Source: Fidelibacter multiformis
Lineage (GTDB): Bacteria; Fidelibacterota; Fidelibacteria; Fidelibacterales; Fidelibacteraceae
Length of the DNA stretch: 32,000 nucleotides
Strand: one strand, 5' to 3'
NCBI RefSeq assembly: GCF_041154365.1
Contig: NZ_AP035449.1
A program made the translations under genes and the position numbers. The notes beneath the pieces were generated by a model. It saw nothing but the letters and a program-made list of their open reading frames with translations. It did no database searches and was not told the origin of the DNA. Shown here one piece after another: positions 6,794 through 29,221 of the stretch. How positions within the stretch are numbered: position 1 is the first letter of the stretch; each line of letters opens with the position of its first letter.

Positions 6794-6821
6794 ATTATAA
6801 AAAAAAAAAAACGATTGTCAA
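6794..6821 (-). promoter_or_regulatory. Consensus sigma70-type promoter TTGACA-N16-TATAAT whose spacer is largely a T13 homopolymer, facing the exported-protein block
   Basis: The minus strand reads TTGACA (6821-6816), then atcg plus 12 T (6815-6800), then TATAAT (6799-6794). The plus-strand A run spans 6799-6811 (13 nt), so the T13 run contributes 12 T to the spacer and the first T of the -10 hexamer. The predicted TSS is near 6787, about 175-210 nt upstream of the first CDS. Confidence 0.6.
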
Positions 6822-6848
6822 GATTATTCAGGTTGAGACTCGCTGTTT

Positions 6849-6897
6849 GCAGTCGGCAGTGGACAGTCGACAGTCGACAGTCGACAGTTGGCAGTGA
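6849..6897 (+). repeat. CAGTNNN-family heptamer array, 7 units
   Basis: The units are gcagtcg gcagtgg acagtcg acagtcg acagtcg acagttg gcagtga. Confidence 0.9.
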
Positions 6898-6948
6898 CGA
6901 GGAGATTGGAGGGATTGATTTGATTGAATAGATTGATTGGATTGCTTG

Positions 6949-7032
6949 CCCCGTGAAATGAGCGCAGCGTATTTCACAGGGGATTGCCTGCCCCGTGAAA
7001 AGGGATCCGGTTTACCGGGATATTTCACGGGG
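6949..7032. repeat. Two adjacent CCCCGTGAAA(T)...(A)TTTCAC(A)GGGG hairpins, the second nested
   Basis: Hairpin a: CCCCGTGAAAT (6949-6959), loop gagcgcagcgt, ATTTCACAGGGG (6971-6982). A copy is at 16189-16222. Hairpin b: CCCCGTGAAA (6991-7000), inner CCGG-ttta-CCGG, TTTCACGGGG (7023-7032). A copy is at 147-188. Confidence 0.9.
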
Positions 7033-7096
7033 GATTCGATTGAATAGATTGATTGGATTGGGGGATTGGATGATTGGCACTTCGCTGAGCTCAGTG

Positions 7097-7420
7097 TTCA
7101 AACGCCTTCGGCGATCAAGAATTCAAGCGGCACTTCGTGCCGTTCAATTGCTTCACTTTGTTCAGCATTCAAGCACTGCTTCGCAGTGTTCAAAAAAGAA
7201 TTCCAGTCACCCATTGAAATCCGCATATCTGGAATTGAACACCGAACGAAGTGAGGTGCTTGAACCCCATGAAATGGGGGTTGAACGCCGTCAGGCGTTG
7301 GAATACCGCACAGCGGTTATTGAACACCGAACATTGTGAGGTGCTTGAACACCACGAAGTGGTGATTGAAAGCCGCGTAGCGGCGTTTAATAAATCAAGC
7401 GGCACTTCGTACCGTTCAAT
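7097..7420. repeat. Array of at least 11 short hairpins (mostly 4-6 bp stems with 3-nt loops) separated by a conserved TTCAA (left arm) or TTGAA (right arm) linker
   Basis: Left arm. CGCC-TTC-GGCG (7103-7113). CGGCAC-TTC-GTGCCG (7128-7142). CACTGC-TTC-GCAGTG (7174-7188). Right arm. CACCgaAC-GAA-GTgaGGTG (7240-7258). CCCCAT-GAA-ATGGGG (7265-7279). AACGCC-gtca-GGCGTT (7284-7299). ACCGC-aca-GCGGT (7305-7317). CACCgaAC-att-GTgaGGTG (7325-7343). CACCAC-GAA-GTGGTG (7350-7364). GCCGC-gta-GCGGC (7372-7384). Then a degenerate copy of the second hairpin at 7400-7414. Linker orientation flips near the GAATTC at 7198-7203. Confidence 0.85.
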
Positions 7421-7473
7421 TGCTTCGCTGCACTCAGCATCTCCGCCCTCTCCATAAAAAATCACTCTCAGCA

Positions 7474-7523
7474 TCTCCGCGCCCACTGCGGGAGGAAAAA
7501 GTCTCCGCGCCCTCTGCGGGAGG
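7474..7523 (-). repeat. Two CTCCGCG...GCGGGAGG hairpin modules (same family as 950-1024), each followed on the minus strand by a T-run
   Basis: tctccgcgcccactgcgggagg (7474-7495) followed by aaaaa. tctccgcgccctctgcgggagg (7502-7523). On the minus strand these read hairpin-CTTTTT and hairpin...GATTTTTTAT, which is terminator-like, yet no minus-strand gene ends here. Confidence 0.6.
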
Positions 7524-7526
7524 ATG

Positions 7527-7561
7527 TCGACTGCCCACTGACGACTGATGACTGACGACTG
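7527..7561 (-). repeat. Inverted CAGTNNN heptamer array, 5 units
   Basis: The plus strand reads tcgactg cccactg acgactg atgactg acgactg. The reverse complement gives CAGTCGT CAGTCAT CAGTCGT CAGTGGG CAGTCGA. Confidence 0.9.
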
Positions 7562-7642
7562 ATTAAGTTTACATAAAATCATTGTGTATCCCAAAAGCCT
7601 GTCATAAATTTTATTCCTAAACATAAAGAGACGAGGCAAAAC

Positions 7643-8206
7643 GTGGCATCAACAGCAGATTTCAGAAACGGGATGGTCATTGTATACAATGGCGCCCTGT
7701 GTAAAATTGTAGAGTTTCAACACAGCAAAATGGGTCGCGGCGGTGCCGTGATCCGGACCAAGCTGAAAAATATTATTACAGGACAAGTCCTGGAAAACAC
7801 ATTCCGCTCCGGCGAAAAGGTGGAAGAAGCCCGGGTTGAAGCCCGGGAAATGGAGTACCTGTATAATGACGGGACCTTCTATTACGTGATGGATCACGAA
7901 ACCTTTGAACAAATCCCCCTTTCGGCTGATATGCTGGGAGATGATGTGTACTATATGAAGGAAAACGCCTTTGTGAAGGTCCTCATGTATCAAAACAAAC
8001 CCATCGGCATCGAACTCCCCACGGCTGTTGTTCTGAAGATCACGGCCACTGAACCGGGCGTCCGGGGAAATACGGCCACCAATGTGACCAAACCGGCCAC
8101 CTGCGAAACGGGACTGGAAGTCCAGGTCCCGATTTTTATCAACGAAGGGGATCTGATAAAGGTGGATACCCGGGACGGTTCTTATCTGGGACGGGAAAGC
8201 AATTAA
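7643..8206 (+). CDS. efp: Translation elongation factor P
   Basis: 187 aa with a GTG start and SD GAGG 8 nt upstream. The N-terminus MASTADFRNGMVIVYNGALCKIVEFQHSKMGRGGAVIRTKLKN and the overall length are typical of EF-P. Confidence 0.95.
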   Translation: MASTADFRNGMVIVYNGALCKIVEFQHSKMGRGGAVIRTKLKNIITGQVLENTFRSGEKVEEARVEAREMEYLYNDGTFYYVMDHETFEQIPLSADMLGDDVYYMKENAFVKVLMYQNKPIGIELPTAVVLKITATEPGVRGNTATNVTKPATCETGLEVQVPIFINEGDLIKVDTRDGSYLGRESN

Positions 8207-8225
8207 TTAAAAATGAGGGGTTGTC

Positions 8226-8693
8226 ATGAGTGAAAGCTGGATTCGCCGGATGGTCAGTCTGGTGGAAGAAAGTGATATTGAAGAACTGGAATTTTCCGGT
8301 TTTTTCCGAAAGATCCGTATCAGTAAACACAAGTCCCCGGGAGGCGGTTCTGTCGTCTATTCTTCATCGCCGGCTTCGGCATCCCATACACCTCAAACCC
8401 CGCCGAAAGAGAGTCCCGAAACCTCAAAACCTGCACCACAAAAAGCACCGGCGGAAGACCCTGCCATAGTGACGAGTCCCATGGTGGGGACATTTTACCG
8501 GGCACCGTCTCCGGAAGATAAATCCTTCGTGGAAGTCGGGGATACAGTGGAAATCGGCCAGACACTCTGTATTATTGAAGCCATGAAGATTATGAATGAG
8601 ATTCAGGCGGAACGGGCGGGGACGGTGAAAGAAATTTTTGCGGAAAATGCCTCACCCGTGGAATACGGAACACCTTTATTCCGGATTGAATAA
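8226..8693 (+). CDS. accB: Acetyl-CoA carboxylase biotin carboxyl carrier protein
   Basis: 155 aa with a P/A-rich linker and the biotinyl-lysine motif [20 protein letters not shown] upstream. The efp-accB-accC arrangement is a common conserved gene order. Confidence 0.95.
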
Positions 8694-10051
8694 TGGCCCT
8701 GAAGAAAATTTTAATAGCCAACCGCGGCGAAATCGCCCTGAGAATTATTCGTGCCTGTCACGAACTGGATATTCCCACGGTGGCCGTTTATTCCAAAGCC
8801 GATAAATTATCCCTCCACGTGCGGTTTTCCGATGAGGCGATTTGCATCGGCGAGGCGAATCCCCGGGAGAGTTATCTGAATGTGACCCGGATTATGGCGG
8901 CGGCGGAACTGACGAATGCCGATGCCATCCATCCCGGATACGGTTTCCTGGCGGAAAATGCGGCCTTTGCCGAACTCTGCGGCGATCACCACCTGGCTTT
9001 TATCGGTCCAACCCCTGCAGTGATCCGGGAAATGGGGGATAAGGCCCGGGCCCGGGAGATCATGAAAAAAGCCGGTGTACCTGTCATTCCCGGAAGCGAC
9101 GGAGTCGTTAAAGATCCGGAAGCAGCGGAAAAAATTGCCGGAAAACTGGGATATCCCGTCATCCTGAAAGCCGTGGCCGGTGGCGGCGGAAAAGGGATGC
9201 GCATCGTTCACGAACCGAAAAATATCCAAAACGCCTTTAATACGGCCCGGAATGAAGCGGAGAATTCTTTCAGCAACGGGGATCTGTACATCGAACGGTT
9301 CATTCGAAAACCCCGGCACATCGAAATCCAGATTCTGGGAGATATGCATGGCAATGTATACGCCCTGGGAGAACGGGAATGTTCCATTCAGCGCCGTCAT
9401 CAGAAACTCATCGAGGAATCCCCTTCCACCGCCGTAGATCCGGAATTACGCCACCGGATGCAGGACACCGCCGTCCGGGCTGCCAAAGCCGTCAACTATA
9501 CCGGCGCCGGGACCATCGAATTCCTCCTAGATGATAAAAAGAATTTTTACTTCATGGAGATGAATACCCGTATCCAGGTGGAACACGCCATTACCGAAAT
9601 GGTCATGGGAATGGATCTGGTGAAAAAACAAATCCAGATCGCCGATGGATATATTTTGCCGGAACGACTGAAGGATTACAAAATCCGGGGACACGCCCTG
9701 GAATGCCGGGTCAACGCAGAAGATCCGGCAAATGGGTTTAAGCCCTCTCCGGGAACGATTGAAGCCCTTCATATTCCGGGAGGATCGGGTGTGCGTGTAG
9801 ATACCCACCTCTACAGCGGTTATACCATCCCCGTGAATTACGATTCTCTTCTTGCAAAAATCATCGTCCAGGGTTCCAGCCGTGAATCGGCGATCCACCG
9901 TATGGTCCGCGTCCTTGAAGAAACAGTTATCGAAGGAATTAAAACCACCATTCCCTTTCACAGACAGGTTCTTTCACATCCTGATTTCGTGAATGGGACC
10001 TTCGATACGGATTTCTTAGAACATTTTCATTTTAACCCCAATAAAGTATAA
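8693..10051 (+). CDS. accC: Biotin carboxylase subunit of acetyl-CoA carboxylase
   Basis: 452 aa. [19 protein letters not shown]-terminus, ATP-grasp motifs [20 protein letters not shown] and [10 protein letters not shown]. The start overlaps the accB stop (TAATG). Confidence 0.97.
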
Positions 10052-10058
10052 GGAGTGT

Positions 10059-10436
10059 ATGATGAATTTCCCTAAAAATTTAAAGTATTCCGATGATCAC
10101 GAATGGGTCCGTGTGGAAGGTGACGAAGCGGTTATCGGAATCACGGATTTTGCCCAGAGCGAACTGGGTGATGTGGTTTACCTGGAACTTCCCTCCGTGG
10201 GTGATGAAGTCAGCAAGGGCGATGCTTTCGGTACCATCGAAGCGGTCAAAACCGTCTCCGATATGCTGGCACCCGTTTCCGGTGAAATCATTGCAGTGAA
10301 TGAAGACCTGAATGATTCTCCGGAAGACGTGAACAAAGAGCCCTATGAAAGCTGGCTGGTTAAAATTAAAATGTCCGATCCTTCCGAAACGGAAGACCTG
10401 ATGGACGCGGAAGCCTACGAAGAATTTATCGGCTGA
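10059..10436 (+). CDS. gcvH: Glycine cleavage system H protein (lipoyl carrier)
   Basis: 125 aa. YSDDHEWVR motif and lipoyl-lysine context GTIEAVKTVSDM. SD AAGGAG upstream. Confidence 0.95.
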   Translation: MMNFPKNLKYSDDHEWVRVEGDEAVIGITDFAQSELGDVVYLELPSVGDEVSKGDAFGTIEAVKTVSDMLAPVSGEIIAVNEDLNDSPEDVNKEPYESWLVKIKMSDPSETEDLMDAEAYEEFIG

Positions 10437-10486
10437 GTCTTCCTTCAAACGGACAAGTGAACACCATTCTCTTATGAGGAGAAACC

Positions 10487-11824
10487 ATGGTTTATATCCC
10501 CAATTCTGAAAAAGATTTTCAGGAGATGTTACAGGCCATCGGGGTTAAGGATTTCGAGGATCTTCTACAATCCATCCCTGATGTGTTGAAATCGGACCGG
10601 ACGCTGGATCTTCCGCCGCCCCTAACGGAAATGGAGCTGGAGGCGGAAATCGCCGGAATCGCCGGAAAAAACCGGGCTTCAGACCGGCTGATCAACTTTA
10701 TGGGCGGGGGAGCCTATGATCACTTCATCCCAAAGGTGGTGGATTATATCCTTTCCCGTTCAGAATTTAAAACAGCCTATACCCCTTATCAGCCCGAAGT
10801 CAGCCAGGGCACCCTCCAGGCCATGTATGAATACCAGTCCATGATCTGTGAACTGACAGGCATGGGCGTTTCCAATGCCTCGCTCTATGACGGCGCCAGC
10901 GGCCTGGCGGAAGCAGCCATGATGGCCCGGAATATTACCGGAAAAAACCGCATTCTGATCGCTGAAACGGTCCACCCTCTTTACCTGCAGGTCCTGAAAA
11001 CCTACGCCGGTTCCCTGGAACTGGATATTGACATTCTTCCCGCCAAAAATTATGTGACCGATCCCAATGCATTGGATGAAAAACTGACATCCCAAACGGC
11101 AGCGGTCATCCTTCAGAGTCCAAATTTTTACGGTTATGTGGAAAACGCTCCGGCAGCGGCGGAAAAAGCCCATCAGGCGGAGGCTCTTTTCATCCAGGGT
11201 TTTGATCCCATTTCGCTGGCCATTCTCAGGGCTCCCGGGGATTACGGGACGGATATCGTTTTTGGCGAAGGGCAGTCACTGGGAAATCATCTGAACTTTG
11301 GCGGACCGTATCTGGGACTTTTTGCGGCAGACCGGAAGTATGTGCGAAAAATGCCGGGACGGATAATCGGCGCAACGGAAGATACACAGGGCCGCAGGGG
11401 ATTCGTCCTAACGCTCCAGACCCGGGAACAACATATCCGCCGGGAAAAGGCCACCAGTAATATCTGCACAAACCAGGGACTCAATGCCCTGGCAGCAACG
11501 GTCTATCTGGCGCTACTGGGAAAATGCGGCATTCGGAAAGTTGCCGAACTGAGCACCCAAAAAGCCCACTACCTGCATGAAAAAATCACCGCCTTGAAGG
11601 GATTTGATAAAGTTTCGGATGAACCTTTTTTCAAGGAATTCACCGTTTACACCCGTATCCCGGCAGCAGAAGTGGTCCGGGAAGCAGAACAGGCGGGATT
11701 TCTGGCGGGAGTCCATGTGGGACAATTTTATCCCGGCAGGATGCATGAACTGATCCTGGCGGTTACAGAAAAACGGACGAAAGCACAGATGGATAAACTG
11801 ATCAACTTTCTGGGAAGCCTATGA
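10487..11824 (+). CDS. gcvPA: Glycine dehydrogenase (decarboxylating), subunit 1 (N-terminal P-protein subunit)
   Basis: 445 aa. The motifs FMGGGAYDHFIP, YTPYQPEVSQGTLQ and REQHIRREKATSNICTNQ are characteristic of the two-subunit P protein alpha chain. No gcvPB follows. Confidence 0.93.
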   Translation: MVYIPNSEKDFQEMLQAIGVKDFEDLLQSIPDVLKSDRTLDLPPPLTEMELEAEIAGIAGKNRASDRLINFMGGGAYDHFIPKVVDYILSRSEFKTAYTPYQPEVSQGTLQAMYEYQSMICELTGMGVSNASLYDGASGLAEAAMMARNITGKNRILIAETVHPLYLQVLKTYAGSLELDIDILPAKNYVTDPNALDEKLTSQTAAVILQSPNFYGYVENAPAAAEKAHQAEALFIQGFDPISLAILRAPGDYGTDIVFGEGQSLGNHLNFGGPYLGLFAADRKYVRKMPGRIIGATEDTQGRRGFVLTLQTREQHIRREKATSNICTNQGLNALAATVYLALLGKCGIRKVAELSTQKAHYLHEKITALKGFDKVSDEPFFKEFTVYTRIPAAEVVREAEQAGFLAGVHVGQFYPGRMHELILAVTEKRTKAQMDKLINFLGSL

Positions 11825-12564
11825 CGGTCTACGAACACTTACTTAAAGCCCGGGAAACATATCAGGCCGGATACATGGTCCTGATTGATCCTGATGCACG
11901 GCCAATAAAGGAAACCGCTGAATTTGCACGGGTGATCAGCCGCGCCGGTGCCGATGCCATCCTCTATGGAGGCAGCCTGATCACCGACGAGGGATTTACG
12001 GATAAATTGATTGCACTCCATGAAGCATCCGATATCCCCGTGATCCTCTTTCCCGGATCTATCGGACAGGTAACATCCCATGTGGATGCCATTTTATATA
12101 TCAGTGTCATCAGCGGCCGGAATCCAAATCTGCTCATCGGTGAACATGTGACCACCGCCATTCAAATCAAGCGTTCCGGCGTGGAAACCATTCCCACAGG
12201 GTACATGCTGGTGGAATCCGGGAAAGTAACGACCGCAGAGTTCATCAGCGGGACCCGTCCCCTGCCGGCCCATAAGCCGGAACTGGCCCTGGCCCATGCC
12301 CTTGCCGGTGAGATGCTGGGCTTTAAAATTCTCTACCTGGAAGCCGGAAGTGGTGCAGAACGACCTGTTCCCAATGCCATGATCAGCACGATAAAAAAAT
12401 ATGTCCGGATTCCCGTAATCACCGGCGGCGGTATCCGAACCCCCGAAACTGCCCGGGAAAAGGTTTTGGCCGGAGCGGATTTTATTGTCACCGGGAATGT
12501 TTTGGAAGATTCGAACAACACAGACCTGCTGGAAGCCTTTGTGAAAGCGGTCCACGGAGAATAA
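11821..12564 (+). CDS. Geranylgeranylglyceryl phosphate synthase family protein (GGGPS/PcrB TIM-barrel prenyltransferase, group-II-like)
   Basis: 247 aa. Family-like motifs: LIDPD, GADAILYGGS, ILFPGS, ISVISGRNPNLLIG, ILYLEAGSG and ITGGGIRTPETAREKVLAGADFIVTGN. The ATGA start/stop overlap with gcvPA implies translational coupling. Confidence 0.8.
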   Translation: MTVYEHLLKARETYQAGYMVLIDPDARPIKETAEFARVISRAGADAILYGGSLITDEGFTDKLIALHEASDIPVILFPGSIGQVTSHVDAILYISVISGRNPNLLIGEHVTTAIQIKRSGVETIPTGYMLVESGKVTTAEFISGTRPLPAHKPELALAHALAGEMLGFKILYLEAGSGAERPVPNAMISTIKKYVRIPVITGGGIRTPETAREKVLAGADFIVTGNVLEDSNNTDLLEAFVKAVHGE

Positions 12565-12565
12565 C

Positions 12566-13156
12566 ATGATGAACAGCTCCTTCGACCTGATCCGTGCCCA
12601 TCTGAAAGCCGGTGGCGATCTGAAACACCGGATTGCCGCATCGGATGATCTGGTTCAGCGTATTTATGACGCCTCAGCCATCATGATCCGGACTTTGAAA
12701 AAGGGGAAGAAAATTCTCTGGTGCGGTAACGGCGGCTCAGCAGCCGACTCCCAGCACCTGTCCGCCGAACTGGTGGCACGGCTGAACATAACCCGGCCCG
12801 GGCTGGCGTCCCTGGCCCTCACGACGGATACATCCCTCCTCACCGCCTGGAGCAATGATGTAGGTTTTGAAAGCCTCTTCAGCCGCCAGGTGGAAGCTCT
12901 GGGGGATAACGGCGACGTGCTTATGGCTCTGTCCACCTCGGGAAAATCCCCCAATGTTTTAAAGGCAGTGAAAAGCGCCCGGGAGAAGAAAATCACCACC
13001 ATTGCCCTCCTGGGACGGGACGGTGGAGTAATCCGGAGTGAAGCGGATCTGGCCATCGTGGTTCCCTCAGAAAACACACAACTGATCCAAGAAATCCATG
13101 TCACGGTAGGGCATCTCCTTTGCGAGCTGGTTGAAACAAAACTGTTTAAAACCTGA
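12566..13156 (+). CDS. gmhA: D-sedoheptulose-7-phosphate isomerase (SIS domain)
   Basis: 196 aa. The motifs CGNGGSAADSQHLSAEL, NDVGFESLFSRQVEALG, STSGKSPNV and IQEIH are collinear with E. coli GmhA as I recall it. DiaA-like function cannot be excluded. Confidence 0.85.
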   Translation: MMNSSFDLIRAHLKAGGDLKHRIAASDDLVQRIYDASAIMIRTLKKGKKILWCGNGGSAADSQHLSAELVARLNITRPGLASLALTTDTSLLTAWSNDVGFESLFSRQVEALGDNGDVLMALSTSGKSPNVLKAVKSAREKKITTIALLGRDGGVIRSEADLAIVVPSENTQLIQEIHVTVGHLLCELVETKLFKT

Positions 13157-13165
13157 CCTGCCGCC

Positions 13166-14080
13166 ATGAATCGACTCAAAGAGACCCTGACCGATTTTAT
13201 CAATCATTTGAGAGTGGAACGTAATTTAGCTGCCAATACCATCGAATCCTACCAGATCGATCTGAACCGCTATCTGGCCTATCTGGAGAGTCTGGAAATT
13301 CAAAATCCCGACGCGGTTGAAATATCCCATGTCATTGCTTTTATCCGGGAACTCCATGATGTTCCCCTGGCGCCCCGGAGCATCTCACGGAACCTTTCTG
13401 CCATCCGCATGTACCATAGATTTATGATGAATGAAGGGTACATTCAGAAAGACGTCACGGAAAACATCGATCTGCCGAAGCTTCCGGCCCGACTCCCCAA
13501 GGTTCTGGAAATTCACGAGATGGAAGCTATCCTCAATGTGATCAACACAGAGACGGATCTGGGAAGGCGGGATCGTGCCATGCTGGAATTGCTTTACGCC
13601 TGCGGGCTTCGGATTTCAGAACTTTTGGATTTGCGTCTATCCAATGTCTATCTGAATCATGGCTGGCTGAGGATTTTCGGAAAGGGTTCAAAAGAACGGG
13701 TGGTGCCCATGGGTGCGGAAGCCCGGGAATGGTTAAAGCACTATCTGACCTATGTGCGATACACCCTGGCGCAAAAATCCATCGAGAGTGAAGATGTGGT
13801 TTTTCTCAATGCCCGGGGCAAGCCCCTGAGCCGCATGGGCGTGTGGAAAATCATCCAGCAGTATATCAAAGCGGCTAAAATCACCAAAAAAGTGAGTCCA
13901 CACACCTTCCGTCACTCCTTTGCCACCCATCTGCTGGAAGGCGGCGCCGATCTTCGGGCCGTTCAGGAAATGCTGGGACACTCGGACATTTCCACTACCC
14001 AAATTTACACCCACCTGGACCGGGAATATTTGAAGGAGGTCCATAAAACCTTTCACCCCAGAGAACGGAGACACGATTGA
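13166..14080 (+). CDS. xerD: Tyrosine site-specific recombinase XerD-like
   Basis: 304 aa. N-terminal SAM-like core-binding domain, catalytic region with ELLYACGLRISEL and HTFRHSFATHLLEGGADLRAVQEMLGHSDISTTQIYTH (R..HxxR..Y). Embedded in a housekeeping operon. Confidence 0.88.
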   Translation: MNRLKETLTDFINHLRVERNLAANTIESYQIDLNRYLAYLESLEIQNPDAVEISHVIAFIRELHDVPLAPRSISRNLSAIRMYHRFMMNEGYIQKDVTENIDLPKLPARLPKVLEIHEMEAILNVINTETDLGRRDRAMLELLYACGLRISELLDLRLSNVYLNHGWLRIFGKGSKERVVPMGAEAREWLKHYLTYVRYTLAQKSIESEDVVFLNARGKPLSRMGVWKIIQQYIKAAKITKKVSPHTFRHSFATHLLEGGADLRAVQEMLGHSDISTTQIYTHLDREYLKEVHKTFHPRERRHD

Positions 14081-14715
14081 ACAATCAGATATTAGATATC
14101 CTCGCCCTGGCTGTTCCCATTTTAATTGCCCTCACGGTCCATGAAGTTTCACACGGGTATGTGGCCTGGAAACTGGGAGATCCCACGGCAAAAATGATGG
14201 GGCGTCTGACTCTGAATCCTATCGCCCACCTGGATCCCATCGGAACCCTTATGCTTTTTCTGGTCCGCTTCGGCTGGGCCAAGCCGGTCCCTGTGGATCC
14301 CCGTTATTTTAAAAATCCCAAACAGGATATGCTGTGGGTTGCCCTGGCCGGTCCGGCATCCAACATGGTATTGGCCTTTCTTTTTGGCCTGCTGATCCGG
14401 GCAGTGGGACTCCAGTCTTCCGGAAATTTTACCGGAGATTTCCTGAAAATGATCCTTCTTTACGGCCTCTATATCAACCTGGCCCTGGCGATTTTTAACC
14501 TGCTTCCTATCCCGCCTCTGGACGGGGGTCGTATTCTGCGCGGACTCCTACCCTGGCGCTATGAACATTACGTAGACCGTCTGGAACAATACGGACCTTT
14601 TGTATTGATGGGACTCATTTTCCTGGGAATGTTTACCGGATTCAGTGTTTTCGGGATTATTATCACACCTTTTGTGCGGTTTTTTGGGGGAATGTTTGCG
14701 GGGATAAACCTGTAG
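14077..14715 (+). CDS. Site-2 protease family (peptidase M50) membrane metalloprotease
   Basis: 212 aa, polytopic. HEVSHG (HExxH) in the first TM helix and NLLPIPPLDGG in a later helix. The TTG start overlaps the xerD TGA stop. Confidence 0.85.
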   Translation: MNNQILDILALAVPILIALTVHEVSHGYVAWKLGDPTAKMMGRLTLNPIAHLDPIGTLMLFLVRFGWAKPVPVDPRYFKNPKQDMLWVALAGPASNMVLAFLFGLLIRAVGLQSSGNFTGDFLKMILLYGLYINLALAIFNLLPIPPLDGGRILRGLLPWRYEHYVDRLEQYGPFVLMGLIFLGMFTGFSVFGIIITPFVRFFGGMFAGINL

Positions 14716-14739
14716 AGAACGGTTTGAAACCGTTCTCTA
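14713..14739. terminator. Perfect 13-bp-arm palindrome between convergent genes (bidirectional terminator-like hairpin, no U-tract)
   Basis: TAGAGAACGGTTT-g-AAACCGTTCTCTA. It starts at the TAG stop of the M50 gene and ends 3 nt before the TAA of the minus-strand methyltransferase gene. Confidence 0.5.
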
Positions 14740-14742
14740 CTA

Positions 14743-15513
14743 TTACAATTGATAACATAATATGCTGAGGATGGCCGCCGCTGCTGTAGCTGCATTCAGG
14801 GATTCGCAATCGCTCAAAGGCGGCAGAGTAACAGGTAAAACAGCATCACCGTTCCATTGGGGATTTACACCCCGTGCTTCGTTCCCAATCACAAGCAGAA
14901 AAGGTTTATCAGATATTTTCAGTTTGGAAACCGGTGTACCATTCCGGACCACGCTGGCTAAAATTTGGTGGGAATTCCGGGTTTTTTCCAGGATATCTGA
15001 GATCGTCATTTCGAAAACAGGCAGGTGAAAATGGGATCCCATGGCGGACCGGATCACCTTGGGATTTACCGCATCCACCGTCCCGGGTGTTGTAATCACC
15101 CCGGCCAGTCCAAACCAGTGGGCAATGCGGATCAGGGTCCCCAGGTTTCCCGGATCCTGAATTTCGTCACACACCAACAGAGAGCCTTCAAGCGTGATAT
15201 CCGGAGAAGACGGCATGGCAATAAGAGCAATCACCCCTTGGGGACTCACCTCGGTACTGAGGCTTTTTATCACACCAGGAGAGACTTCATACACAGGGAT
15301 ATTTCGGTGGCGGGCTGTATCCAGGAGTGCATTAAATCCTGGTTTATCCAGGAGATAAGGCTGGTAGAGAATTTCCTGAACCCGTGCCTGCATCTTCAGG
15401 GCTTCCTCCAGGAGAAGAATTCCTTCCAGCAGATAAGCCTGGTGAATTGAGCGATACTTTTTCTGTTGCAGGGAGCGGATACGTTTTAGATGTTCTTTGG
15501 AAAGTGTTTCCAT
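14743..15513 (-). CDS. TrmH/SpoU-family RNA 2'-O-methyltransferase (RlmB-like)
   Basis: 256 aa. N-terminal substrate-binding-like segment, then SpoU motifs LLVCDEIQDPGNLGTLIRIAHWFG, LVIGNEARGV and SLNAATAAAI. Confidence 0.85.
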   Translation of the reverse strand: METLSKEHLKRIRSLQQKKYRSIHQAYLLEGILLLEEALKMQARVQEILYQPYLLDKPGFNALLDTARHRNIPVYEVSPGVIKSLSTEVSPQGVIALIAMPSSPDITLEGSLLVCDEIQDPGNLGTLIRIAHWFGLAGVITTPGTVDAVNPKVIRSAMGSHFHLPVFEMTISDILEKTRNSHQILASVVRNGTPVSKLKISDKPFLLVIGNEARGVNPQWNGDAVLPVTLPPLSDCESLNAATAAAAILSILCYQL

Positions 15514-15595
15514 AGAAAGAATTTAAGAAGAGTCTGCCTGCATAACGACAAAAACCGTCAGGAGGAACCGACAGCTTACAGATGTGTATAAAGTA

Positions 15596-15624
15596 TTGAA
15601 CGGAACGGGGAAAATCCCTATACT
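15596..15624 (+). promoter_or_regulatory. Near-consensus sigma70-type promoter for ssrA (TTGAAC-N17-TATACT)
   Basis: TTGAAC is at 15596-15601, followed by a 17-nt spacer and TATACT at 15619-15624. The mature tmRNA 5' end lies 18 nt downstream. Confidence 0.6.
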
Positions 15625-22884: not shown

Positions 22885-23550
22885 TCAGGCAAGATTTACC
22901 AGAACAAAATAGAGAAACTGGGCAATAAAGATATGCATGGGAATTAATTGCCGATCTTTAACAGGCGGGAAATACCGTAGGAAAGGAAAGGAGAAAATAA
23001 AACCGAAGGCAAACCATGCCACATAATTTTGCCAGGGGATGGTATAGTTCTGCCAGTACCAGAATCCTAAAGCCCGGGCCGCCGGTTCCATCACACCGTC
23101 AAATCCGGTCATCAATAGTGCGGCAAAAAGTGATCTGAAACCCCAGGCATAACGGGAAAGATACAGGTTTGCAATCTGGACGGCACCAAAAACCAGGTTG
23201 AGCCAGCTAAAGCCGATCACCAAAGGAACGCCGAAAATCTGCGGAGAAAGGGCATTGGTATAGGCATAATGTCCGAAAAGGATTCCGGTTTTTTCACCCA
23301 CAATTTCCAATACCAGGGCGGTTATAAAAATTAAACCGGTCCAGATGAAAAAAATATTCAGTAGGGGTGTTTCCCGATAAAGAGAGATAAAATAAATCAG
23401 ATTAATGGAAAAGAGGAGGACCAGAAGTGGAACGTACAGTATTTGGCTGGTTTTGTGAAAAAGTCCTGCCAGGTGCCAGATCCCTCCAAAGATCATCACC
23501 GCGTATATGAGGATCATGAGTCCGTATGTTTGGAAAAATTGTTTCTTCAT
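22885..23550 (-). CDS. cruF: Carotenoid biosynthesis membrane protein, CruF-like (DUF422 family; carotenoid 1',2'-hydratase type)
   Basis: 221 aa, polytopic. The segments GEKTGILFGHYAYT, GVPLVIGFSW and MEPAARALGFWYW resemble the CruF/DUF422 family as I recall it. ATGA overlap with the upstream GT2 gene. Confidence 0.7.
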   Translation of the reverse strand: MKKQFFQTYGLMILIYAVMIFGGIWHLAGLFHKTSQILYVPLLVLLFSINLIYFISLYRETPLLNIFFIWTGLIFITALVLEIVGEKTGILFGHYAYTNALSPQIFGVPLVIGFSWLNLVFGAVQIANLYLSRYAWGFRSLFAALLMTGFDGVMEPAARALGFWYWQNYTIPWQNYVAWFAFGFIFSFPFLRYFPPVKDRQLIPMHIFIAQFLYFVLVNLA

Positions 23551-24674
23551 CGTGTATTTTCCTCTTTTATGACAGCTCTTCCCTTCCAGGTGATACTGCC
23601 TTTTCGGTAACTGTTCCAGGAGTGAAGTGCGATACGGGCTGTATACAGGATGGATATGGGGTGCAGAACGATGCTGACAAAGGGCGGGTGACGGTAAGCC
23701 AGCACCAGAAGCATGCGGATCAACAGGTTGAGAATCACAGTTCCTGCTACTGCCAAACCAGGAGAAAAAATCAACAGTCCGTAAGGGATCACCATTGTCA
23801 ACAGCAACATGGAAAAAATAAGAAAAAACAATCCCGAATGAAATCCGGTAAGTCCGAACAGATTTTTTGCAAAGCCGGCACGAACCTCTTCCGCATTCCG
23901 GTACATACGGCCGTATACCGTGCCCGTCCCGGGCGTGGTGAGGAGATGCAGTCCCCGTTTCTTGGTTTTTCGGCTCATGGCCACATCTTCAACTATTTCG
24001 GAAGCCATTTCTTTGTGTCCACCCAATGTGTCGTAAGCCTCTTTTCTGAACACCATCCACTGCCCATTTGCAGCAGCCAGGGAAGGAAAGGGTGAAAACC
24101 GGGTGAGCCAGAGGGGAAGCATACTGTACACAAAAAGATCTACCACTGGTATCACCAGCTTTTCAGGAAGGGTTTTAAGAGTTTGTTGGGGAAAAGCAGA
24201 GAGCATGTCCAGATTCAAGGCCTGCATCCATCGGACGCTTCTTTCCAGTGCCGCCGGATGGTAGGTGTTATCGGCATCGGTAAAGACAAGGATCTCACCG
24301 GATGCTTCCTGAGACAGCTGATGACAGGCCCATGTTTTTCCCACCCATCCAGCCGGAAGTTCTTTTCCCCGTATTCCCCGGACCTGCTTGTGTTTGAAGG
24401 CAAATCCCTGAATGATTTCCCGGGTTTTATCTGTCGAGTGATCATCCAGGACCAAAATTTCCGCAGGTGCCGGATCCAAAGCCAGCAGACTTTCCAGACA
24501 CGCCGGCAGGTTGTGTTCTTCATTCCGGGCCGGGACAAGCACCGATATGGTGGGGTTTGTAAAACGAGATTTTTTAGGAGGATGGGATAAGCGCGGGCCT
24601 GTTGATACATTGACCAGCGTGACCAATAGAAAAAGGCCCAGGATTCCATAGAGAATAATTATAAAAAATGTCAT
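23547..24674 (-). CDS. Family 2 glycosyltransferase (carotenoid glycosyltransferase, CruC/CrtQ-like by context)
   Basis: 375 aa. GT-A motifs SVLVPARNEE, ILVLDDHSTDKT and VFTDADN, plus C-terminal TM helices. Sits inside the carotenoid operon with ATGA overlaps on both sides. Confidence 0.75.
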   Translation of the reverse strand: MTFFIIILYGILGLFLLVTLVNVSTGPRLSHPPKKSRFTNPTISVLVPARNEEHNLPACLESLLALDPAPAEILVLDDHSTDKTREIIQGFAFKHKQVRGIRGKELPAGWVGKTWACHQLSQEASGEILVFTDADNTYHPAALERSVRWMQALNLDMLSAFPQQTLKTLPEKLVIPVVDLFVYSMLPLWLTRFSPFPSLAAANGQWMVFRKEAYDTLGGHKEMASEIVEDVAMSRKTKKRGLHLLTTPGTGTVYGRMYRNAEEVRAGFAKNLFGLTGFHSGLFFLIFSMLLLTMVIPYGLLIFSPGLAVAGTVILNLLIRMLLVLAYRHPPFVSIVLHPISILYTARIALHSWNSYRKGSITWKGRAVIKEENTR

Positions 24675-25342
24675 CGGGATCCCGGTGATTGCCTGCCTGT
24701 AAAAAGGCGGTGACCTGTTTCACCCTGAATAATGCTGTTTTCCATTTCCTGAAGCAACATGTCCATCTTAAGGGCAGCAGGGGCTGGAGAAAATGCGGAA
24801 TTTTCAATTTTTCGGAACATGATAAAGATATCCGGACGCTGATCTCCCAGAAATTCTGTCCGGATACCACAGATAAACACATCCGGTTTTCCTGAGGATG
24901 CAGAAAGAATATGTGAAAATCCTGCTTTAAAGGTCAGGGGTCGCTGATGCCAGGGCAGCAGTTTCCCCTGGGGGAAAAGAAAAAGCAGATGCCGGGGATT
25001 TTCCAGCAGGCGTGCACTGTAAGCCAGGGTTTTTTCAACATCTTCACGGTCCCCCGGCCGCACTGAATATGCACCAAGACGGTTGAAAAAGGGAAATCGA
25101 TCCAGTTGTTTCTCTTCCATCATCACAAAGGGTTTTTTTTGCCAGACAAGATCATTGATCAGATAAATGATAAAACCATCCCACCAGGTGCTATGATTGG
25201 GAAGGAGTAAGACACTCCGATCTTCAGAAAATGGAGGAAGTTCTCCCAAAATCTGCACACTGTGAAAGGAACACCGGACCAGATGATGTAAATAAGGCCT
25301 GAAAACAATATGGGCCCACCCTGTATGACGAGCCGGTTTCAT
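24671..25342 (-). CDS. PlsC-type acyltransferase (carotenoid glycoside acyltransferase, CruD/CrtO(Staph)-like by context)
   Basis: 223 aa. H(X)4D motif in LLPNHSTWWDGF. Operon context between crtB and the GT2 gene, with ATGA overlaps. Confidence 0.65.
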   Translation of the reverse strand: MKPARHTGWAHIVFRPYLHHLVRCSFHSVQILGELPPFSEDRSVLLLPNHSTWWDGFIIYLINDLVWQKKPFVMMEEKQLDRFPFFNRLGAYSVRPGDREDVEKTLAYSARLLENPRHLLFLFPQGKLLPWHQRPLTFKAGFSHILSASSGKPDVFICGIRTEFLGDQRPDIFIMFRKIENSAFSPAPAALKMDMLLQEMENSIIQGETGHRLFTGRQSPGSR

Positions 25343-26238
25343 TTCCTGTTGAAAACCTTATCTCTTCGGTATTTCATGTATTCTGTTAAAGTGATGGCTA
25401 TTTTCCGGTTAAAACTGACACTGACCCGCCCCTTAAAGGGATTGTAGTCATTGGCTCTGAATTCTTCCAAAATGCCCCGGTAAATCCGGGAAGCAGCATG
25501 GATGGCAAAACGGGAATCGGTATCCAGGTAGCGGATTCCTGATGCAGATTCTTCATAATAACGGTGGGCGTTATCGGCAGTAGCTTTCAACATGCTTCGC
25601 ATGGCCGGTGAAAAACGTTCCTGAAAGATATCTTCTTCAGCGACATCATATCGCTCCAGTTCCGACATGGGGATGTAAATTTTACCCCGGTTCTTATCTT
25701 CCCGGATGTCCCGGAGGATATTGGTCAGCTGCATGGCGACACCCAGTTTTTCGGCATATTCAAAGGCATCCCGGTGTGAAAATCCTATAATGTATGTCAT
25801 CATGAGTCCGATGGTGCCTGCCACACGATAACAATACACATACAAATCTTCAACGTGGGTATAACGGCTGTGGGAAATATCCATACTGACACCTTTGATC
25901 AGATCGAGAGGATATTCAATAGGAATGGAGAAAGAGATGGCAGTCTGGATAAAAGGTTTTAAAACGGGATGCTCCGATTCTTTTCGCCGGTAGGCTGTTT
26001 CGATTTCCCATCGCAGGTGGTCCAGTTCCCTCTGGAGTTCTTCCCGGTCCCTGTCCCGGGGATTATCAACCAGGTTGTCTGTATACCGGGCAAAACCATA
26101 CAGGGCATAGGTCGCCTGGCGTTTGTGTTTAGGGAAAAACCGGGAGGCAAAATAAAAACTCCGGGCGTACAAGGCCGTGATGTTTTTAACGTAGGCGTGG
26201 CTCAAAAGATGTGGCTTGTTTGGATCCCCTTTCATCAA
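25339..26238 (-). CDS. crtB: Phytoene synthase (squalene/phytoene synthase family)
   Basis: 299 aa. YARSFYFASRFFP, YGFARYTDNLVD (first Asp-rich region) and QLTNILRDIREDKNRGKIYIP (second). Confidence 0.92.
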   Translation of the reverse strand: MMKGDPNKPHLLSHAYVKNITALYARSFYFASRFFPKHKRQATYALYGFARYTDNLVDNPRDRDREELQRELDHLRWEIETAYRRKESEHPVLKPFIQTAISFSIPIEYPLDLIKGVSMDISHSRYTHVEDLYVYCYRVAGTIGLMMTYIIGFSHRDAFEYAEKLGVAMQLTNILRDIREDKNRGKIYIPMSELERYDVAEEDIFQERFSPAMRSMLKATADNAHRYYEESASGIRYLDTDSRFAIHAASRIYRGILEEFRANDYNPFKGRVSVSFNRKIAITLTEYMKYRRDKVFNRK

Positions 26239-27731
26239 ACCCCTTCAGTCTCTGTCAGGATGACATGTTCCGTCGTTTCAGCCGTCATCAGTGTTCCGGG
26301 GAGTCCGGCTCCCGGATGGGTGCTGGCCCCAACCAGGTATAAGCCCTGAATATCTTCGCTCCGGTTATGAGGCCGTAAATAAGCGCTCTGGGTCAGTTTG
26401 GGTTCCACACCCCAGGCGGCTCCAAGATGATTGTTTCGATCCTTTTGAAAATCTTCAGGTGTAAACACCGATTTGTAAATAATATGTTTTGAGAAATCTT
26501 CCAAACCAAAGCTGTGTTCCAGGTAATGGAGAATGCTGTTGACAAACATTTCACTGAATTCGTCCCAGTTTGTCCTGCTGAGCTGATTGGCAACAGGAAC
26601 CAGAACATACATGCTTTCTCCTCCGGGAATGGCCATGGTTTTATCGGTCCGGCTGGGTACATGAAGGTACATGGAAAAATCAAAGGGGACCTTCTTTTTA
26701 TCAAAAATATTCCGGATAAGCCGTTTGTAATCTTTTGAAATGATCAGGGTATGGTGTTTTAACTTGTCGTACTTTCGGTCCAGTCCCAGGTAGATCAGAA
26801 CAGAACTCATGGAATAATCAATTTTCTCCAGCTTTTTATTCCGCCATTTTTTCCGGTCCCCGGCATCCACCAGGTCATGGTAAGTGTGATAGAAATCGGC
26901 ATTGGAAACAACGATATCCGCCGGATAAAAGGATTGACTGCTTTTTACACCCGTCACCCGCCGGTTTTGGGTTTCGATACGGGTTGCCGGCTCAGATGTG
27001 TGGATGTGCCCGCCCAATTCCTGAAAAAGGGACGTGAAGGCTTGAATGAGTGAATACATTCCACCGGGGGTATAATGAACTCCGCCCTCTTTTTCAAGCC
27101 ACGGAATCATCTGATAAACCGCAGGTGCTTTAAACGGATTACCTCCGATAAACAGGGGATGAAAGGAAAAGACAAAGCGGCTTCTGGGATCTTTGAAATA
27201 CCGTTTGACAAAGGTATAGGCCGGCAAAAAAACACCCAATCGAATGGCTTTTGGCGCAAAGCTGATCATGGATTTCAAGGTCATGAAAGGTTTTGTCCCC
27301 AGCCCCTTTTTGATGACGGCTTCTTCCATGATCCTGGAGGATTCCATAAAGGCATCATACCGGGCTGCATCTTTGGGATGAAAGGTTGCCAGTTGTTCTT
27401 TCATCCTTTCTGTATTTCCGGAATAATCCAGATAACTGCCATCATGAAAATAGATGCGGTAGTAGGGATCCAGGGGGATCAGTTCCAGGTAATCGGACAT
27501 TTTCTTCCCTGCAGACTGAAATATCTGATCCACCACGTCCGGGGCGGTAACCAGAGAGGGTCCCATGTCAAATGTAAAACCCTCTGCCTTTAACTGTTGG
27601 GCGTGTCCCCCTGGGGCAGCCTGTTTTTCCAAAATAGTGACTTTGGCTCCCCGGGACTGAAGGCGGATACCCAGGGCCAGCCCGCCGAAACCGGAACCAA
27701 TAATGACCACATTTTTTCCCTTTAACGTCAT
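26235..27731 (-). CDS. crtI: Phytoene desaturase (CrtI family)
   Basis: 499 aa from the ATG at 27731 (MTLKGKNVVIIGSGFGGLALGIRLQSRGAKVTILEK, FAD dinucleotide fold). That ATG forms an ATGA overlap with the upstream stop. The C-terminal YLVGASTHPGAGLPG motif is present. The longer track ORF (to 27833) overlaps the upstream gene and lacks the fold. Confidence 0.9.
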   Translation of the reverse strand: MTLKGKNVVIIGSGFGGLALGIRLQSRGAKVTILEKQAAPGGHAQQLKAEGFTFDMGPSLVTAPDVVDQIFQSAGKKMSDYLELIPLDPYYRIYFHDGSYLDYSGNTERMKEQLATFHPKDAARYDAFMESSRIMEEAVIKKGLGTKPFMTLKSMISFAPKAIRLGVFLPAYTFVKRYFKDPRSRFVFSFHPLFIGGNPFKAPAVYQMIPWLEKEGGVHYTPGGMYSLIQAFTSLFQELGGHIHTSEPATRIETQNRRVTGVKSSQSFYPADIVVSNADFYHTYHDLVDAGDRKKWRNKKLEKIDYSMSSVLIYLGLDRKYDKLKHHTLIISKDYKRLIRNIFDKKKVPFDFSMYLHVPSRTDKTMAIPGGESMYVLVPVANQLSRTNWDEFSEMFVNSILHYLEHSFGLEDFSKHIIYKSVFTPEDFQKDRNNHLGAAWGVEPKLTQSAYLRPHNRSEDIQGLYLVGASTHPGAGLPGTLMTAETTEHVILTETEGV

Positions 27732-29221
27732 ATCTTCCCTCTTTCCCTGAATTGTTTTACCAGTTTCCCCGTGATCTGTCCTGAAAGAATCACCAAGGGT
27801 ACTCCACCACCGGGATGAGCAGATCCACCACAAAAATAGAGTCCCTTTACATCCCGGTTCCGGTTGGCCGGCCGCCGAAAAGCCGTGTTCCGGTCATTGG
27901 ATGAAATTCCGTATATGCTGCCACGGTTCGATCCGTATAAACGCTCCATGTCCCTGGGATCGGTCACAGCTTCCGCCACGATCCTGTTCCGGATATCCAG
28001 GCCGTGATCCAAAAGTTTCTGTAAAACACGCTCCCGGATGGCAGGGATCCACGTATCCCAGTCCTGATGTGGAGCCAGACTGGGCATGTTGACCAGAACA
28101 AACCAGTTTTCATGGCCTTTTCGTGCATGTTCTTCGTCTTTTTTCGATGTGACGGCCACATATACCGTCAGATCTTCTGCAGGGGTTTGGGTTACGAACA
28201 AATGTTCAAATTCCTGGTCATAATTTCGGGCAAAAAAAATGTTATGGTGGGCCAGTTCCGGATATTTTCCTTCTACACCCCAGTAAAAAATCAGTCCGGA
28301 GAGAGAAGGTTCAAGCCGTTCAAGCCGGTGGAGGGATTGATTCTTCCCTTTGATAAGGTGTCGAAACGTAGTGACGGCATCGGCGTTGGAGACGACGGCT
28401 GAGGCACCCGTGAAGTGCTCACCGGTCTGAAGGCCGGTCACGTGATGGCTGTTGTAAAATATTTGCCGGACCGGAGTGTGATACTCAATGGGAATGTCCA
28501 ATTCGGCACACCGTTGGGTCAGTGCATCAGTAAGCCGGGCAATGCCTCCTTTGATGTAAACGGCCGGAAGGCCATATTCCACATAGGAGATCATGTTCAG
28601 GGTCGCCGGAGCTTTTCGGGGATCGGCGCCCACATAGGTGGCATACCGGTCCATCATCTGCCGGATGCGATGATCGGTGAAATAGGAGGAAATCGCCTGG
28701 TGCATGGACCGGAAAGCGTCAATTTTCAGCAGGGATGGCAATCGGAGGAGACTTTTCAGGGTCAGCAGGGTGGCCAGTTCATGGATAGGCTGAAAAAGAA
28801 AGAGATCTGCCGTCCGTTCATAGAGTCCCCGGCCGTAACGAAGAAAAGACTCCCATCGTTGTGCGTCTTGGACGGATAGCCGGCCAAGATTTTCAGTCAT
28901 CTGCTCCGGGTCGGCCGTGGCATCGAAAGCCTCCCTTTCTCCCGGAAAAAAATAGCGGCAAAGGGGGTCAATGGGTACATAATCCAGATAATCCTGCCGG
29001 TGGGCACCCGTTTGTTCAAAGAGCCGGTCGATTACGAAAGGCATGGTAATCAGGGAAGGACCTGTATCAAAGCGGAAACCGCTCACAATCCGTTCTCCGG
29101 CTTTTCCGCCGGCATGGGCATTTTGCTCGTAAATTTCTGTTTCAATACCCAGAGATTTCATCGTAAGGGCGGCACTGAGTCCACCCAGGCCCGCACCAAT
29201 CACCGGGACTTTTTCAATCAC
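27728..29221 (-). CDS. Second CrtI-family flavoenzyme (CrtD-like 3',4'-desaturase or CrtO-type ketolase; not distinguishable by eye)
   Basis: About 498 aa from the GTG at 29221 (VIEKVPVIGAGLGGLSAALTMKSLGIETEIYEQN), which overlaps the upstream stop by 8 nt. C-terminal YFCGGSAHPGGGVP motif. The ATG at 29299 would give an 85-nt overlap with the cyclase gene. Start position is uncertain. Confidence 0.8.
   Translation of the reverse strand: MIEKVPVIGAGLGGLSAALTMKSLGIETEIYEQNAHAGGKAGERIVSGFRFDTGPSLITMPFVIDRLFEQTGAHRQDYLDYVPIDPLCRYFFPGEREAFDATADPEQMTENLGRLSVQDAQRWESFLRYGRGLYERTADLFLFQPIHELATLLTLKSLLRLPSLLKIDAFRSMHQAISSYFTDHRIRQMMDRYATYVGADPRKAPATLNMISYVEYGLPAVYIKGGIARLTDALTQRCAELDIPIEYHTPVRQIFYNSHHVTGLQTGEHFTGASAVVSNADAVTTFRHLIKGKNQSLHRLERLEPSLSGLIFYWGVEGKYPELAHHNIFFARNYDQEFEHLFVTQTPAEDLTVYVAVTSKKDEEHARKGHENWFVLVNMPSLAPHQDWDTWIPAIRERVLQKLLDHGLDIRNRIVAEAVTDPRDMERLYGSNRGSIYGISSNDRNTAFRRPANRNRDVKGLYFCGGSAHPGGGVPLVILSGQITGKLVKQFRERGKI

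Follow-up and report, generated by a model that had tools for sequence, protein, structure and literature searches.

A group II geranylgeranylglyceryl phosphate synthase gene and its genomic position in Fidelibacter multiformis

The window analysed here, a stretch of 32,000 nt from the genome of Fidelibacter multiformis (contig NZ_AP035449.1, assembly GCF_041154365.1), carries at 11821..12564 (+) a gene whose 247 aa product is a group II geranylgeranylglyceryl phosphate synthase (GGGPS) of the PcrB family; profile matches, solved structures, an AlphaFold model and conserved residues all agree on this identification. The fuller reading, in which the enzyme probably feeds a diether lipid pathway and the gene reached its place beside gcvPA through an ancestral rearrangement, is given a probability of about 0.75. 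Family, fold, residues, gene inventory and synteny were computed here, and from these we infer activity, product, oligomeric state, co-transcription and rearrangement. The gene itself is an unremarkable example of a kind described before, and the phylum has already been listed as carrying both GGGPS and digeranylgeranylglyceryl phosphate synthase (DGGGPS; Coleman et al., PMC6431249). Added here are an explanation of the gene position through a rearrangement with a complementary alaS-gcvPB junction, the clean loss of the gene in a sister genus, and a full inventory of the pathway.

Family, fold and conserved residues

The open reading frame (ORF) begins with ATG, and the start codon is considered correct because alignments with homologues begin at residue 1–2. 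All curated cut-offs are exceeded: Pfam PF01884 (PcrB) scores 154.1 bits against 23.9 (E = 5e-45, residues 17–243), NF003198 (GGGPS/HepGPS subfamily) 278.8 bits against 247, and TIGR01769 (GGGP) 207.7 bits against 161.55. Given this PF01884 E-value and the more than 7000 relatives recovered in a database search, the assignment to GGGPS is far beyond chance. An earlier note on this DNA, made from the letters alone, had described a 247 aa frame with GGGPS/PcrB-like motifs and an ATGA overlap with gcvPA, and had suggested the profile search that now places the protein in this family. Direct reading bears out the frame and the overlap, with the ATG of GGGPS at 11821–11823 and the TGA stop codon of gcvPA at 11822–11824 (...cctATGAcgg...). 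It is the only PcrB-family gene in the genome, which consists of one contig of 2,788,509 bp with 45.6 % G+C. The closest named relatives come from Candidatus Marinimicrobia/Neomarinimicrobiota, now named Fidelibacterota in the NCBI taxonomy and also known as SAR406; the source lineage is a phylum within the FCB (Fibrobacteres–Chlorobi–Bacteroidetes) group.

Assignment to group II rests on sequence and fold comparison with Protein Data Bank (PDB) entries. The best match is 4mm1 from Methanothermobacter thermautotrophicus (E = 4.9e-51), followed by 4jej from Flavobacterium johnsoniae (8e-50), and further group II matches are the T. volcanium (6nke) and T. acidophilum (6jo3) enzymes. Group II matches as a whole range from E = 1e-42 to 5e-51 at 35–41 % identity, whereas those to group I and PcrB are far weaker (AfGGGPS, 1.5e-10; Bacillus PcrB, 2e-7 at ~21 % identity). 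An AlphaFold (AF2) model, for which 12 homologues were used, shows a (beta-alpha)8 barrel and has a predicted local distance difference test score (pLDDT) of 86.5 and a predicted template modelling score (pTM) of 0.88. In Foldseek comparisons this model reaches template modelling (TM) scores of 0.89–0.93 with group II structures, at root mean square deviations of 1.6–1.9 Å, against 0.73–0.81 with group I, PcrB and MoeO5 structures. The motifs FPGS (F77-P78-G79-S80) and SGRNP(N/E)LLIG (S98-G99-R100-N101-P102-N103-L104-L105-I106-G107), which the earlier note had taken to be of group II type, belong to a predicted soluble prenyltransferase that sequence and fold alike place in group II and not in group I or PcrB.

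Individual residues were mapped by alignment to 4mm1, with their roles taken from PMC9385802 and PMC7888582; the triad numbers given for MtGGGPS in PMC9385802 do not match the chain index, and mapping of the triad rests on the alignment instead. Asp23, Ser52 and Val84 align, in an ungapped part, with D25, S54 and V86 of 4mm1. The D25 and S54 equivalents form the Mg2+/diphosphate site, and V86 of MtGGGPS is the proposed limiter of chain length to C20 (PMC9385802). Likewise, Tyr128, Tyr172 and Glu174 align with the conserved Tyr/Tyr/Glu residues that bind glycerol-1-phosphate (G1P) and set the stereospecificity for it (PMC9385802). The same alignment places the phosphate-binding loops at S177-G178, G202-204 and V223-T224-G225, and sets Phe141 opposite W141, an aromatic anchor with a role in hexamer formation (PMC7888582). 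All of these positions are invariant among 12 relatives (alignment A1) with the exception of Val84. With Val84 at the limiter position and Phe141 at the anchor position, the enzyme is predicted to be C20-specific and hexameric. By homology, Mg2+ on Asp23 would help to ionise geranylgeranyl diphosphate (GGPP), and the C3 hydroxyl of G1P, placed by Tyr128, Tyr172, Glu174 and the phosphate loops, would attack the carbocation to yield geranylgeranylglyceryl phosphate (GGGP).

The group IIb enzyme of Flavobacterium johnsoniae (4JEJ) shares family, fold and catalytic residues with the present protein (41 % identity, TM 0.90) and likewise comes from the FCB superphylum; it differs in genomic context and at the anchor position, where the protein here has Phe141 like the hexameric enzymes. 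The M. thermautotrophicus enzyme (4MM1), an archaeal group IIa hexamer, has the Asp, Ser, Tyr/Tyr/Glu and Val limiter residues in common with it, as well as an aromatic anchor, but is archaeal and acts in a pathway with a G1P dehydrogenase and CarS, neither of which is found in the genome here. Bacillus PcrB, the heptaprenylglyceryl phosphate synthase of group Ib (1VIZ/3VZX), shares the superfamily and the G1P-binding barrel; with a TM score of ~0.8, the low identity given above and a C35 donor, it leaves the present enzyme outside the PcrB group.

Putative ether-lipid genes in the genome and across the phylum

Supply of GGPP is encoded by the methylerythritol phosphate (MEP) pathway, an isopentenyl diphosphate isomerase (IDI) and a GGPP synthase (GGPPS)-like gene. 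The latter, an IdsA/GGPPS-like short-chain prenyl synthase, adjoins the IDI gene, which is of type 2; a second polyprenyl synthase gene and IspH are also present, and HMG-CoA reductase is absent from the genome. To our knowledge there is no precedent for salvage by a GGGPS running in reverse. Such a role, here on archaeal lipids from neighbouring methanogens, would fit the catabolism raised by Coleman et al. for FCB bacteria that lack a G1P dehydrogenase (PMC6431249), and F. multiformis IA91T, the sole cultured member of the phylum, relies on what other microbes produce and shows better growth with a methanogen (PMC11652737). However, the supply line for GGPP is complete, and homologous bacterial enzymes work in the synthetic direction both in vitro and in Escherichia coli (PMC7852524). 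Reverse operation is accordingly regarded as extremely unlikely, and synthesis of GGGP is the reading followed here.

Two UbiA genes are found in the genome, one of which is MqnP/UbiA-like and adjoins UbiX. The second (C1:2561790–2562638 in genome coordinates) lies ~21 kb downstream of GGGPS, just beyond the end of the window, with rho and a Cas6b-like ORF coming before it. The models that it matches best are those of DGGGPS (NF009521, 205 bits; another, 203 bits), and its best PDB match is the M. jannaschii DGGGPS 6m31 (E = 3.5e-31). A member of the geranylgeranyl reductase (GGR) family (236 bits, cut-off 158.8) finds its best specific matches among digeranylgeranylglycerophospholipid reductases, and a CdsA gene is present. 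The GGGP product would probably be passed to the DGGGPS-like UbiA, after which the lipid may be saturated by the GGR homologue and activated by the bacterial CdsA. In this way, ordinary fatty-acid lipids would be accompanied by a component of archaeal-type diether lipids.

The inventory is the one known from earlier publications on FCB bacteria, as in Candidatus Cloacimonetes (Villanueva et al., ISME J 2021, PMC7852524). The mixed-membrane set described there likewise comprises GGGPS, a DGGGPS homologue, GGR, CdsA and two polyprenyl synthases, with neither CarS nor a G1P dehydrogenase. Group II enzymes of Bacteroidetes and Cloacimonetes make GGGP in vitro (PMC7852524). Two differences stand out: the synthase genes are co-localized in Cloacimonetes, whereas here they are ~21 kb apart with GGGPS inside a housekeeping array, and enzyme activity has been demonstrated for the Cloacimonetes enzymes, whereas that of the GGGPS described here is predicted.

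Several observations weigh against the proposed diether pathway. The DGGGPS-like UbiA falls below the cut-offs of both its best models (296 for NF009521, an NCBIfam equivalog, and 269). No G1P dehydrogenase is found in the genome: NF002022 reaches at most 38.8 bits (cut-off 413), and PF13685 picks out AroB and two generic iron-containing alcohol dehydrogenases (C1:685705–686805 and C1:2313195–2314352). Nor is CarS found, the best PF01864 match being a sub-cut-off one of 19.2 bits inside the CdsA gene. With neither gene in the genome, acceptor supply and the activation step are hypothetical parts of the pathway. Additionally, the published fatty acids of IA91 are ordinary C16–C18 chains, mainly C16:0 and C18:1; these lipid data are MIDI fatty-acid methyl esters only (PMC11652737), and as MIDI misses isoprenoid ethers, the profile neither shows nor excludes them. 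A search of the rest of the genome for a G1P dehydrogenase and a DGGGPS-like UbiA, as the earlier note had advised, thus returns the second without the first, which is the published FCB pattern (PMC6431249, PMC7852524).

The missing dehydrogenase is also an argument for an enzyme that takes glycerol-3-phosphate (G3P) in vivo, which would give ether lipids with bacterial stereochemistry. Promiscuity of GGGPS toward G3P has been reported (PMC7852524; PMC9385802), and across the 151 genomes (60 genera) of the phylum sample, G1P dehydrogenase-like genes occur in 12 (98–191 bits, all below cut-off) and in none of the window's family. Yet the Tyr/Tyr/Glu residues responsible for G1P stereospecificity are conserved, and E. 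coli without araM or egsA makes archaeal lipids of the G1P type, so that a bacterial source of G1P exists (PMC7852524). Use of G3P is considered unlikely, and G1P is retained as the presumed acceptor. The sporadic G1P dehydrogenase-like genes are confined to families f5, f9 and f18; those of nine genomes (G064, G109, G057, G081, G129, G096, G052, G032 and G053) score 155–191 bits with NF002022, below the archaeal cut-off, and might be of AraM type, completing the pathway in those lineages.

A cross-table of GGGPS and UbiA over the phylum sample was made by hand from two listings. GGGPS is present in 108/151 genomes (53 of the 60 genera) and DGGGPS-like UbiA in 131/151. Both are found in 104 genomes and both are missing from 16, among them the ~1-Mb genomes of genus g23 (seven) and those of g39, g54 and g49, all 94–99 % complete. 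GGGPS occurs without UbiA in only four genomes, all at most 87 % complete. That the two genes mostly travel together supports a shared pathway. UbiA without GGGPS is seen in 27 genomes, and 21 of these belong to g2, a sister genus within the window's own family, in which UbiA is present in 21/22 genomes and GGGPS in 0/22; no PcrB-family gene was found in five g2 genomes that are 92–95 % complete. The g2 array has the order efp-gcvH-gcvPA-(gap)-SIS-xerD-M50, with GGGPS and accBC cleanly excised (e.g. L147, G017:C1:702000–713000; also L148 and L149), and accC is detected, weakly, in 2/22 genomes. The persistence of UbiA in this genus indicates that UbiA can work alone, a further point on the opposing side. 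As a separate observation, g2 lacks both GGGPS and accB-accC. Its members would seem to be devoid of acetyl-CoA carboxylase, and may in consequence not make fatty acids de novo, while UbiA is retained.

The g2 pattern lends itself to another explanation, that GGGP is made but serves a minor or specialized lipid, for example one dephosphorylated or modified like the heptaprenylglyceryl phosphate of Bacillus, rather than a bulk diether, with UbiA acting in some other pathway. The distance of ~21 kb between GGGPS and UbiA, in separate operons, and the ordinary fatty-acid profile of IA91 (PMC11652737) would fit, and what bacterial GGGPS products do biologically has been described as unknown (PMC7888582). 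Against this stand the co-occurrence of the two genes in 104 of 151 genomes with their joint absence from several well-assembled lineages, and the GGR homologue, for which digeranylgeranylglycerophospholipid reductases are the best specific matches. A minor lipid is thus a possibility of some weight but not the favoured one; the favoured reading remains a diether pathway.

Whether such lipids would add up to a mixed membrane, with isoprenoid diethers made through GGGPS, the DGGGPS-like UbiA and GGR beside fatty-acid ester lipids and with no known G1P dehydrogenase, is a different matter, and this larger claim is put forward tentatively, as possible but not probable. If true, it would imply either a bacterial route to G1P not known so far or ‘archaeal’ lipids based on G3P, in a living culture. 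The occurrence of archaeal-type ether lipids beside bacterial lipids in a bacterium would matter for the ‘lipid divide’ and for thinking about early membranes, and the mixed-membrane question was explicitly left for cultured strains by Villanueva et al. (PMC7852524). If the genome is that of IA91, ether lipids, their glycerol stereochemistry and the missing source of G1P could be measured directly in culture.

A carotenoid cluster that includes a CruF-like gene is close by, which raised the question of a separate role for the second UbiA as a lycopene elongase. Such a role was set aside as remote, as the best profile and structure matches are to DGGGPS and the cluster looks to be of the C40 glycoside-ester kind. 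The cluster itself (22885–30477, minus strand, within the window) comprises genes for a CruF-like protein (PF04240), a family 2 glycosyltransferase, an acyltransferase, a CrtB-like protein, a CrtI-family protein, a CrtD-like protein and a lycopene cyclase. Found here in an obligately anaerobic subsurface lineage, it is similar to gene clusters that make carotenoid glycoside esters, and it would share the GGPP pool with GGGPS.

Gene order and the position beside gcvPA

The earlier note had remarked that GGGPS occupies the place where gcvPB is normally expected. This is literally correct, since gcvPB lies ~680 kb from gcvPA (C1:1861356–1862813, minus strand) between alaS and a udk-like gene, but it is not peculiar to this genome, the arrangement being phylum-wide. 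The order gcvH-gcvPA-GGGPS-(SIS)-xerD-(M50) is found in ~26 of the best 30 phylum loci, from at least eight families and at 50–56 % protein identity, and the gcvPA/GGGPS junctions in the relatives examined span 0–28 nt. Of the 80 named loci taken from GTDB species genomes, only those labelled (Neo)marinimicrobiota or clustering with them have efp-accBC-gcvH-gcvPA upstream of GGGPS. The array-bearing GGGPS sequences, including that of the window, form one clade of 13 rows with a Shimodaira–Hasegawa-like approximate likelihood ratio test (SH-aLRT) value of 86; together with a group from Ignavibacteriota and Bacteroidota, this clade falls inside a larger one (SH-aLRT 96).

GGGPS in other FCB phyla recurs in the setting recA-recX-alaS-GGGPS-SIS; in 27 loci, drawn from Bacteroidota, Zixibacteria, Calditrichota, Fibrobacterota and Rhodothermota, it has alaS as its immediate upstream neighbour. 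In the source genome it is gcvPB that follows alaS. The window's genus shares this alaS-gcvPB junction, as do families f2 and f8 and 20/20 further genomes from 15 other families. Outgroups keep (accC)-gcvH-gcvPA, with gcvPB directly next in a Fibrobacteres genome and, in a Zixibacteria genome, separated from the array by one gene; a Calditrichota and a Bacteroidetes genome have accC-gcvH-gcvPA with no gcvPB following within the flank examined. A rearrangement, as indicated by the complementary alaS-gcvPB junction together with alaS-GGGPS in other FCB phyla, best explains the presence of GGGPS where gcvPB would be expected. In the ancestor of Fidelibacterota, the alaS/GGGPS and gcvPA/gcvPB junctions would have been exchanged reciprocally to give alaS-gcvPB and gcvH-gcvPA-GGGPS-gmhA. 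One ancient event of this kind, which left a conserved scar, is the simplest reading of the GGGPS position, and the scar could serve as a marker of the phylum. As an observation on the partner locus, the array alaS-gcvPB-(udk-like fusion gene) at C1:1861356–1865492 of the source genome (L007, L150) is conserved across Fidelibacterota and complementary to the gcvPA-GGGPS junction.

A single inversion would suffice if both arrays lay on opposite strands. They do so in the source genome (G000), as an inversion model predicts, but share one strand in another complete genome (G134). Strand orientation was therefore dropped as a diagnostic test; later rearrangements blur it, and it gives no proof of a single inversion, which has to be counted against this part of the reading.

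Given the ATGA overlap with gcvPA, the 1 nt spacing to the following gene and the retention of the array across the phylum, a functional tie between GGGPS and the glycine cleavage and acetyl-CoA carboxylase genes might be supposed, in the form of a regulatory unit coupling lipid synthesis to one-carbon or lipoate metabolism. The joint loss of accBC and GGGPS in g2 could be read in the same sense; this co-loss was rejected as evidence of coupling, since it is seen in g2 only, while the ~1-Mb g23 genomes have accC in 7/7 and GGGPS in 0/7. Moreover, outside the phylum GGGPS follows alaS and not gcvPA, the alaS-gcvPB junction throughout the phylum points to a rearrangement scar, and in some families gcvH lies directly before GGGPS without any gcvPA. 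A coupled unit is thus judged very improbable. No association of GGGPS with glycine cleavage genes was met beyond Fidelibacterota in the loci examined, the other FCB phyla having alaS upstream, and nothing found links the enzyme functionally to glycine cleavage. The synteny analysis thereby removes a tempting but wrong lead, that of a functional gcv-lipid operon, in favour of the rearrangement.

The families with gcvH directly before GGGPS (f11, f19, f21, f16 and f22; loci L100 and L117–L119) have a single-chain GcvP of ~950 aa in place of GcvPA/GcvPB, and they form a nested subclade in the GGGPS tree. This suggests that gcvPA was secondarily lost in these families.

Neighbouring genes

The array in the window runs on one strand (+) from efp to an M50-like gene, with gaps of −4 to about 50 nt and a spacing of 1 nt between GGGPS and its downstream neighbour, and GGGPS is very probably co-transcribed with these neighbours. 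A promoter and terminator scan of 6800–15600 gave counts equal to the shuffled expectation and was uninformative on operon structure. Upstream lie efp (7643..8206; TIGR00038, 259.7 bits, cut-off 185.8), accB for the biotin carboxyl carrier protein (8226..8693; TIGR00531, 158.7 bits, cut-off 115.2), accC for biotin carboxylase (8693..10051; NF006367, 703.6 bits, cut-off 597), gcvH (10059..10436; NF002270, 178.6 bits, cut-off 117) and gcvPA for glycine dehydrogenase subunit 1 (10487..11824; NF001696, 615 bits, cut-off 364). The placing of accBC in an operon-like array with GGGPS, made in the earlier note, is thus accurate. Downstream are a gene for a GmhA-like protein with a SIS domain (12566..13156; TIGR00441, 197.5 bits, cut-off 209), xerD (13166..14080; TIGR02225, 376.8 bits, cut-off 329.6) and, last in the conserved array, a gene for a membrane protease-like protein of the M50 family (14077..14715; PF02163, 61.2 bits), which is kept after xerD in relatives.

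The genome has no gmhA-like gene besides the SIS-domain gene; elsewhere it carries a GmhB-like gene and encodes a heptose-7-phosphate kinase domain, the latter scoring 345.4 bits at a cut-off of 345. On a plain reading of these sequences it would encode GmhA for heptose synthesis. The alternative of an orphan isomerase linked to the missing glycerol-phosphate supply was rejected, as the heptose kinase, the GmhB-like gene and the single gmhA-like copy make GmhA the simplest choice. In ~30 loci from Ignavibacteriota, Bacteroidota and Zixibacteria, too, GGGPS is immediately followed on its own strand by a GmhA-like SIS gene. Across these phyla and Fidelibacterota the pair is kept with a varying gene upstream (L065, L073, L078, L079, L081, L088–L092, L094–L099, L101, L103 and L105; further, L107–L109, L114, L115, L121, L126, L127 and L133). 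GGGPS and GmhA are thus a conserved pair across phyla with no obvious shared pathway.

Other neighbours recur elsewhere. A gene for a PHP phosphatase of the CpsB/CapC type directly follows GGGPS in four loci (L064, L086, L113 and L131), from Calditrichota, Cloacimonadota and two others. In Poribacteria, four loci (L060, L067, L085 and L093) have a geranylgeranyl-reductase-like gene directly upstream of GGGPS, and six related loci (L069, L074, L076, L077, L083 and L112) have grpE-dnaJ after it. The Cas6b-like ORF between rho and the DGGGPS-like UbiA of the source genome (PF17262, 83.7 bits) lies at L045:764–1459 (+), which corresponds to G000:C1:2561053–2561748.

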